From: Escherichia coli
GTDB taxonomy: Bacteria > Pseudomonadota > Gammaproteobacteria > Enterobacterales > Enterobacteriaceae
DNA length: 64,000 nucleotides
Assembly: GCF_003334765.1 (NCBI RefSeq)
Contig: NZ_QOWT01000021.1
Reading direction: 5' to 3' (one strand)
Below are positions 36,408-38,390 of the stretch, in pieces (positions within the stretch are counted from its first letter, which is position 1; each line of letters opens with the position of its first letter). Below the pieces are notes generated by a model. The model was not told the DNA's origin. It was given only the letters and a program-made list of their open reading frames with translations, and did not search any database. A program made the translations under genes and the position numbers.

Positions 36408-38282
36408 ATGAAAGGACAAGAAACTCGTGGTTTTCAGTCAGAAGTGAAACAGCTTCTGCACCTGATGATCCATTCTCTCTATTCCAATAAAGAAATCTTC
36501 CTGCGTGAGCTTATCTCTAACGCCTCCGATGCGGCGGACAAGCTGCGTTTCCGTGCGCTCTCTAACCCGGACCTGTACGAAGGTGATGGCGAACTACGCG
36601 TTCGTGTCTCTTTCGATAAAGACAAGCGTACGCTGACCATCTCCGATAACGGCGTGGGGATGACCCGCGACGAAGTGATTGACCATCTGGGGACTATCGC
36701 TAAATCCGGTACCAAATCATTCCTCGAATCCCTGGGTTCTGACCAGGCGAAAGACAGCCAGCTGATCGGTCAGTTTGGTGTTGGTTTCTACTCTGCGTTT
36801 ATCGTGGCCGACAAAGTGACCGTGCGTACTCGTGCGGCAGGCGAAAAACCAGAAAATGGCGTCTTCTGGGAATCGGCTGGCGAAGGTGAATACACCGTTG
36901 CCGACATCACCAAAGAAGATCGTGGTACTGAAATCACCCTGCATCTGCGTGAAGGCGAAGACGAGTTCCTCGATGACTGGCGCGTGCGTTCCATCATCAG
37001 CAAATACTCCGACCATATCGCGCTGCCGGTAGAGATCGAAAAACGCGAAGAGAAAGACGGCGAAACCGTTATCTCCTGGGAGAAAATCAACAAAGCGCAG
37101 GCGCTGTGGACTCGTAACAAGTCGGAAATCACCGATGAAGAGTACAAAGAGTTCTACAAACACATCGCCCACGACTTTAATGATCCGCTGACCTGGAGCC
37201 ACAACCGTGTTGAAGGTAAGCAGGAGTACACCAGCCTGCTGTACATCCCGTCCCAGGCTCCGTGGGATATGTGGAACCGCGATCATAAACACGGCCTGAA
37301 ACTGTATGTTCAGCGTGTGTTCATCATGGACGACGCAGAACAGTTCATGCCGAACTATCTGCGCTTCGTGCGTGGTCTGATTGACTCCAGCGATCTGCCG
37401 CTGAACGTTTCCCGTGAAATCCTCCAGGACAGCACGGTAACGCGTAACCTGCGCAATGCGCTGACCAAGCGTGTGCTGCAAATGCTGGAAAAACTGGCGA
37501 AAGACGACGCGGAAAAATACCAGACCTTCTGGCAACAGTTTGGCCTGGTACTGAAAGAAGGTCCGGCGGAAGATTTCGCTAACCAGGAAGCGATCGCCAA
37601 ACTGCTGCGTTTTGCTTCTACCCATACCGATTCTTCTGCGCAGACCGTATCTCTGGAAGACTACGTTTCCCGCATGAAAGAAGGGCAGGAGAAAATCTAC
37701 TACATCACCGCAGACAGCTATGCGGCAGCGAAGAGCAGCCCGCACCTGGAACTGCTGCGTAAGAAAGGCATCGAAGTTCTGCTGCTTTCCGACCGCATCG
37801 ATGAGTGGATGATGAACTATCTGACTGAGTTCGACGGTAAACCGTTCCAGTCGGTGTCTAAAGTTGACGAGTCGCTTGAAAAACTGGCTGACGAAGTTGA
37901 TGAGAGCGCGAAAGAAGCGGAGAAAGCACTGACTCCGTTCATCGACCGTGTGAAAGCCCTGCTCGGCGAGCGCGTGAAAGATGTCCGTCTGACTCACCGT
38001 CTGACCGATACGCCAGCGATCGTTTCGACCGACGCGGACGAAATGAGCACTCAGATGGCGAAACTGTTCGCTGCGGCGGGCCAGAAAGTGCCAGAAGTGA
38101 AATACATCTTCGAACTGAACCCGGATCACGTACTGGTGAAACGTGCGGCAGATACTGAAGATGAAGCGAAGTTCAGCGAGTGGGTAGAACTGCTGCTGGA
38201 TCAGGCGCTGCTGGCAGAACGCGGCACGCTGGAAGATCCGAACCTGTTTATTCGTCGTATGAACCAGCTGCTGGTTTCCTGA
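36408..38282 (+). CDS. htpG: Hsp90-family chaperone HtpG (624 aa)
   Basis: GHKL ATPase N-terminus ([26 protein letters not shown]); full-length match. Confidence 0.98.
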
Positions 38283-38390
38283 TGTAATGCCGGATGACCT
38301 TCGTGTCATCCGGCATTTTTCTTTTCATCATCTGCACTTTCCGCAAATTATCTCGCCATTAACCGTTTCAGCCCCAGGTGCCTTTCTTGA

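Follow-up and report, generated by a model that had tools for sequence, protein, structure and literature searches.

The long open reading frame antisense to htpG in Escherichia coli is most probably a by-product of codon bias

Introduction

Long open reading frames opposite codon-biased, highly expressed genes are already known as frame -1 shadow ORFs (Silke 1997 and Merino et al. 1994, as cited in Mir et al. 2012, PMC3454372). Mir et al. argue that, on a genome-wide scale, certain long shadow ORFs go beyond what a model would predict. Furthermore, antisense frames have been described that are genes in their own right. The best-supported long bacterial overlapping genes in frame -1 are olg1 and olg2 of Pseudomonas aeruginosa, with lengths of 957 and 1542 nt. 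The evidence for them consists of RNA-seq, Ribo-seq, mass spectrometry, a reduced synonymous variation of the mother gene, purifying selection as estimated with OLGenie and clade-wide conservation of the ORF (PMC8850804). In E. coli, antisense ORFs embedded in annotated genes are likewise represented by ano, laoB and pop of EHEC and by the candidates of Zehentner et al. 2020 (bioRxiv 10.1101/2020.11.18.388249). Most of these are short, and they came to light through Ribo-seq signal and regulation, unlike the frame considered here; Ano is in frame -3 (PMC5960689).

The frame opposite htpG shares with the known shadow ORFs the reading frame, the cause, that is, avoidance of TTA, CTA and TCA, and the type of gene, and there is no material difference between them. 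The same property is found in lon, acrB, ppiD, adk, aceE, dnaK and ftsZ, and within a 214-kb sample the htpG frame is among the longer, but not the longest. The comparison with olg1 and olg2 is less favourable. Neither of the two sequence features compared, reduced synonymous variation of the mother gene and conservation of the ORF, is found for the htpG frame; its antisense dN/dS clearly exceeds 1, and its start lacks conservation. A literature search for an antisense gene of htpG found none, and among the Zehentner et al. candidates, as far as the available text and supplements go, htpG was not found, nor were its putative locus tags b0473, Z0590 and ECs0526. The shadow ORF described below represents an already known phenomenon and almost certainly not a second gene.

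The open frame opposite htpG

The window, the whole stretch of 64,000 nucleotides that was analysed, represents the lon-to-ybbP chromosomal region of E. coli, which is matched in 5,425 of 5,426 complete E. coli genomes. Of the 5,427 htpG matches in E. coli genomes, two sit on records labelled plasmid. At the locus itself, the RefSeq annotation comprises recR, htpG (encoding the molecular chaperone HtpG) and adk, and the antisense strand is without annotated gene. A preliminary description of the window had pointed out a minus-strand frame of 530 amino acids opposite htpG, and this frame is indeed present, running from an ATG to a TGA (Table 1).

The frame is codon-aligned with htpG: (38307-36408) mod 3 = 0, and therefore the third position of each htpG codon is the first position of an antisense codon (frame -1). 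In this configuration an antisense stop can only be generated by the sense codons TTA and CTA (Leu) and TCA (Ser). HtpG contains 66 leucines, 55 of which are encoded by CTG, and 44 serines, while TTA is absent from the gene, CTA occurs once and TCA twice. The codon-aligned antisense frame accordingly has 3 stops, whereas the two remaining antisense frames have 17 and 24. All stop-making codons are confined to codons 1-104, which leaves 520 consecutive open antisense codons within the coding sequence after codon 104, and the frame extends beyond the stop codon of htpG as far as an ATG at 38307-38309. The conceptual product is rich in Phe (13.2%), Val (10.4%), Arg (10.2%) and Gln (9.1%), in line with the earlier remark on an abundance of Arg, Phe and Val, and this skew is as expected from the complement of the Glu, Lys, Leu, Asp and Ala codons of HtpG.

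Table 1. Positions of the htpG antisense frame, of the elements that delimit it and of comparable codon-aligned antisense frames (window coordinates, unless a locus label is given)
Feature	Position	Strand	Remarks
ATG-to-stop antisense ORF, 530 aa	36717..38309	-	ATG at 38309, stop TGA 36719-36717; codon-aligned antisense frame of htpG
Full stop-to-stop open frame	36717..38324	-	535 codons
htpG CDS	36408..38282	+	molecular chaperone HtpG, 624 aa
htpG sense codon 11, TCA	36438..36440	+	antisense TGA stop
htpG sense codon 63, CTA	36594..36596	+	antisense TAG stop
htpG sense codon 104, TCA	36717..36719	+	TGA ending the 530-aa antisense ORF
htpG intrinsic terminator	38286..38317	+	13-bp stem, 6-nt loop, T-run
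Open frame opposite lon	458..1849	-	463 codons stop-to-stop; 410-aa ORF from GTG (458-1690)
Open frame opposite acrA	26176..26844	+	222 codons; 215-aa ORF (26197-26844)
Open frame opposite adk	38427..39212	-	261 codons
Open frame opposite aceE	L093 27811-30243	-	810 open antisense codons; codon-aligned
Open frame opposite dnaK	L092 17956-19371	-	471 open antisense codons; codon-aligned
Open frame opposite carB			456 open antisense codons
Open frame opposite aceF			429 open antisense codons
Open frame opposite ileS			427 open antisense codons
Open frame opposite rapA			426 open antisense codons
Open frame opposite ftsZ			408 open antisense codons, the whole gene
Open frame opposite acnB			404 open antisense codons

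Comparable antisense frames elsewhere

Frames of this kind are not restricted to htpG. Two shorter ones, reported earlier opposite lon (410 aa) and acrA (215 aa), could both be located, and they occupy the same frame relative to their genes as in the htpG case (Table 1). The window has 23 unannotated open frames that reach 150 codons or more and overlap a gene, and 17 of them are codon-aligned antisense frames; besides those of lon (463 codons) and adk (261 codons), they reach 298 codons in acrB, 292 in ppiD and 279 in cnoX. In adk, which lacks TTA, CTA and TCA altogether, the antisense strand is open over the full length of the gene.

When the comparison of stop-to-stop lengths was widened with an additional 150 kb of an E. 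coli chromosome, further long frames were encountered opposite the genes listed in the lower part of Table 1. The length of the htpG frame, which had been singled out as exceptional, does not stand out in this sample, since opposite aceE the same frame stays open over 810 codons, and opposite dnaK over 471.

Some open frames of the window are not codon-aligned: 238 codons opposite mdlB (offset 1, 13002-13718, minus strand), 195 codons opposite ybaB/recR (offset 2, 35123-35710, minus strand) and 190 codons opposite cnoX (offset 1, 58829-59401, plus strand). These offset frames fall outside the argument based on TTA, CTA and TCA.

Codon bias and the length expected by chance

If the average codon usage of the 53 remaining genes of the window is taken as a null model, about 14.4 antisense stops would be expected in htpG and the longest run would have a mean of 147 codons; the probability of a run of at least 520 codons is below 5e-5. 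The frame is therefore non-random with respect to the codon usage of the window. This non-randomness belongs to the codon bias of htpG. In the 41 further genes of the window with 150 codons or more, the proportion of Leu and Ser codons that make antisense stops drops linearly with the fraction of Leu encoded by CTG (r=-0.77), and htpG, with a CTG/Leu of 0.83, lies on the regression line (z=0.22), so that its depletion of stop-makers is proportional to its overall codon bias.

Moreover, the depletion of stop-making codons is no stronger than that of other non-optimal codons. TTA, CTA and TCA together occur in htpG at 0.21 of expectation, versus 0.33 for fifteen other classical non-optimal codons and 0.43 for the other non-optimal Leu and Ser codons (stop-maker comparison, Fisher p=0.20). 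TTG, AGT, CCT, CGA, CGG and ACA are absent from the gene, though none of these is able to make an antisense stop.

Codon shuffling, which had been proposed in the preliminary description, was carried out with the htpG codons themselves. With synonymous permutation within the gene, the longest run averages 330 codons and P is 0.021 for at least 520 codons, and a position-aware null, in which the enrichment of rare codons at the 5' end is modelled, gives a P of 0.042. Even against its own codon usage the htpG run is thus in the upper 2-4%, and its length is judged compatible with these shuffled controls. The within-gene permutation null is itself miscalibrated: 7 of the 52 testable window genes have p<0.05, versus 2.6 expected (KS p=0.01), and htpG ranks only fourth, behind lon, tomB and decR. 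This null over-calls significance, the likely reason being that rare codons cluster at the 5' ends of genes. In genes of the window with 200 codons or more, TTA, CTA and TCA are indeed enriched in the first 10% of the gene, where they constitute 0.212 of the Leu and Ser codons versus 0.119 (Fisher p=5e-5).

The codon usage of the antisense frame points in the same direction. Its log-likelihood ratio against a model of real genes is -0.42 bits per codon, which is typical of -1 frames (mean -0.35), while the minimum for real genes is +0.33.

Start site and expression signals

The ATG of the antisense ORF is located inside the stem of the htpG intrinsic terminator, and this location is accidental. 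In an antisense RNA the hairpin would form as well, with a predicted free energy of -27.2 kcal/mol (z=-5.9). At this ATG the Shine-Dalgarno duplex amounts to -0.9 kcal/mol. The absence of an RBS-like start context, as noted earlier, was borne out by a scan of 14 in-frame NTG starts, in which the best duplex is -3.3 kcal/mol, versus a median of -5.7 for annotated genes. Between 36300 and 38700 no sigma-70-like promoter was detected on either strand (0 versus 1.7 expected).

An Rfam scan of the window yielded no family within htpG. Elsewhere in the window, it recovered the DnaX frameshift element, ffs (SRP RNA), sroB and three naRNA4/REP-type copies, the positions being 34644-34708, 17744-17840, 48492-48575, 42735-42812 and 49873-50051.

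Conservation and selection

The conservation of the frame was assessed in a set of 80 htpG orthologues from Enterobacteriaceae, the products of which have 89-100% amino-acid identity. In only 25 of the 80 species is the region that is homologous to the ORF of E. coli free of stops; in the other 55 it is broken by 1 to 10 of them. Over the whole of htpG, antisense stops occur at 75 distinct codon positions. The number of stops in the homologous region tracks the CTG/Leu of the species (Spearman -0.58, p=2e-8, across species). Some species have longer antisense runs than E. coli, up to 613 codons. A divergent genome labelled E. coli, with 94.9% nucleotide identity, has an antisense stop at codon 239. 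The start is even less widespread, as only 7 of 79 species have an in-frame ATG past the stop codon of htpG. A TCA in the loop of the terminator cuts the position of the ATG off from the frame in E. albertii, in E. whittamii and in the divergent genome labelled E. coli (L003).

Codon 11 of htpG (36438-36440), a non-preferred Ser TCA in 64 of 79 Enterobacteriaceae (TCT in 11 and TCG in 4), is the sole persistent antisense stop. Its retention may reflect a constraint from 5' mRNA structure or from a codon ramp.

With respect to the three closest relatives, 35 of 37, 63 of 63 and 75 of 76 substitutions fall on third positions of htpG. Where HtpG is 100% identical, the antisense "protein" is only 88.5% identical, and the dN/dS of the antisense frame is 2.3-6. 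The ORF is intact in the window and in six diverse E. coli strains, and in the latter there are 6-18 antisense amino-acid changes versus 0-2 in HtpG. Purifying selection on the antisense amino-acid sequence was thus not found, either in dN/dS or in the strain changes. HtpG undergoes few nonsynonymous changes, and hardly any site is synonymous in the sense and the antisense frame at once. The substitution pattern is dictated entirely by htpG.

A second coding function could also be visible as a reduced synonymous variation of htpG over the overlap. Such a reduction was not found in comparison with codons 1-104, adk and recR. The dS of the overlapped codons 105-624 is similar to that of codons 1-104, and for the gene as a whole it is 0.60-0.80, versus 0.65-0.79 for adk and 0.64-0.88 for recR, the flanking genes. 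As the dS of htpG is similar to that of its own 5' part and of its neighbours, there is no extra constraint on its synonymous sites.

Homology of the product

The antisense product has no match in Pfam, even at E<=10, and sequence searches of NCBIfam and PDB gave no match either. Among 5.8 billion proteins, only 16 matching clusters were retrieved. The two most distant of these, P0010 (633 aa) and P0016 (604 aa), are antisense to htpG homologues (L089 2001-3902 and L090 2001-3815, respectively). In both cases the gene caller chose the wrong strand because the true htpG ORF is interrupted by runs of N; P0010 and P0016 are therefore spurious "hypothetical proteins".

A free-standing protein family for the product was considered and rejected, in view of the absence of Pfam, NCBIfam and PDB matches and of the nature of the two distant clusters inspected, which are antisense-of-htpG calls. 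The contig CACSKA010000001.1 (L072), labelled Chryseobacterium sp. 18061, carries an enterobacterial-type HtpG that is 89% identical to that of E. coli, and it is probably a contamination or a mislabelled assembly.

Origin of the frame

The frame is almost certainly a shadow ORF, a passive by-product of the codon usage of htpG without a function of its own. It is neither exceptional in length, nor conserved, nor under selection, and its sequence is devoid of signals for expression. The earlier suggestion that it is the complement of a codon-biased gene, and probably no gene, is backed by the shuffles, by the behaviour of the other non-optimal codons and by the Shine-Dalgarno scan. Further backing comes from the lack of conservation of the ORF and its start and from a substitution pattern set by htpG.

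Codon bias is well established in highly expressed genes of E. coli. On the basis of this knowledge, we infer that selection on the translation of the sense gene would be the cause of the codon avoidance. TTA, CTA and TCA are non-preferred in E. coli, and htpG, a strongly codon-biased heat-shock gene, avoids these and all other non-optimal codons, so that almost no antisense stops remain. The position of the three remaining stop-makers, within the first 104 codons, matches the general 5' enrichment, and the frame then simply runs past the htpG stop codon until it meets a chance ATG in the terminator stem.

It could be imagined that htpG harbours a genuine antisense overlapping gene, translated and selected in E. 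coli and comparable to olg1/olg2, pop, ano and laoB. All E. coli sensu stricto genomes sampled carry the long ORF intact, its run is nominally above the own-codon shuffles (P=0.02-0.04), and long overlapping genes in frame -1 have been reported in bacteria (PMC8850804). However, the frame is interrupted in most of the species, including the divergent genome labelled E. coli, and its ATG, embedded in a terminator stem, is rarely matched by an in-frame ATG in other species and is cut off already within the genus Escherichia. Neither a better Shine-Dalgarno duplex than -3.3 kcal/mol nor a sigma-70-like promoter was found in the regions scanned, the antisense dN/dS is high while the dS of htpG is not lowered, the codon usage is that of a -1 frame, and the product lacks Pfam, NCBIfam and PDB matches. 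Furthermore, htpG is not among the candidates of a five-strain E. coli Ribo-seq survey, as far as its available text and supplements go. All in all, an overlapping gene of this type seems highly improbable. The same holds for a more modest variant, restricted to E. coli sensu stricto, in which part of the antisense strand would be transcribed and translated at a low level, with a non-canonical start inside the frame, and would represent a very young, species-restricted proto-gene that has left no selective footprint yet; this, too, we consider most improbable. If a true 530-aa protein were encoded within htpG, it would rank with the longest overlapping genes known from bacteria, but the evidence is against it.

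Two other readings do not invoke a recent gene. A non-coding antisense RNA, regulatory or pervasive, with the ORF merely incidental, would be in agreement with the pervasive antisense transcription that is common in E. coli (discussed in PMC7457138), and a weak antisense promoter might exist within the htpG-adk spacer or downstream of it. The promoter scan between 36300 and 38700 and the Rfam scan of htpG nevertheless gave nothing in its favour, and such an RNA would leave the open frame unexplained, while codon bias already explains it; we deem this reading very unlikely. The frame could also be regarded as a relic of ancient two-strand coding of the Rodin-Ohno type, as was once suggested for hsp70 and NAD-glutamate dehydrogenase, with a product akin to a free-standing family. 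Long antisense ORFs opposite chaperone genes have been discussed historically; our literature search for the hsp70/glutamate-dehydrogenase claim returned nothing relevant. Merino et al. 1994 speculated on an ancient translation system, as cited in PMC3454372. Against such a relic stand the absence of matches in Pfam (E<=10), NCBIfam and PDB, the explanation of P0010 and P0016 as antisense calls on htpG homologues, and a frame that is not conserved even inside Enterobacteriaceae. On these sequence comparisons, the two-strand relic is effectively refuted by the lack of any free-standing homologue, and we give it next to no credence.

Significance and further observations

As a discovery, the shadow ORF of htpG is of no weight; its value is that of a calibrated negative. 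It provides a worked example of how codon bias gives rise to very long antisense ORFs opposite genes with high expression, those of chaperones included. There are also two practical consequences. Simple within-gene codon permutation over-calls significance, as it did for 7 of the 52 genes at p<0.05, and gene callers emit shadow frames as "hypothetical proteins" where assembly gaps break the true gene.

Finally, a minor observation concerns cof. In strain H3 this gene is annotated as frameshifted (L001 8701-9518), while the window carries an ORF of 276 aa at 8688-9518; across the first ~9 kb, strain H3 shows a 1-base offset relative to the window.
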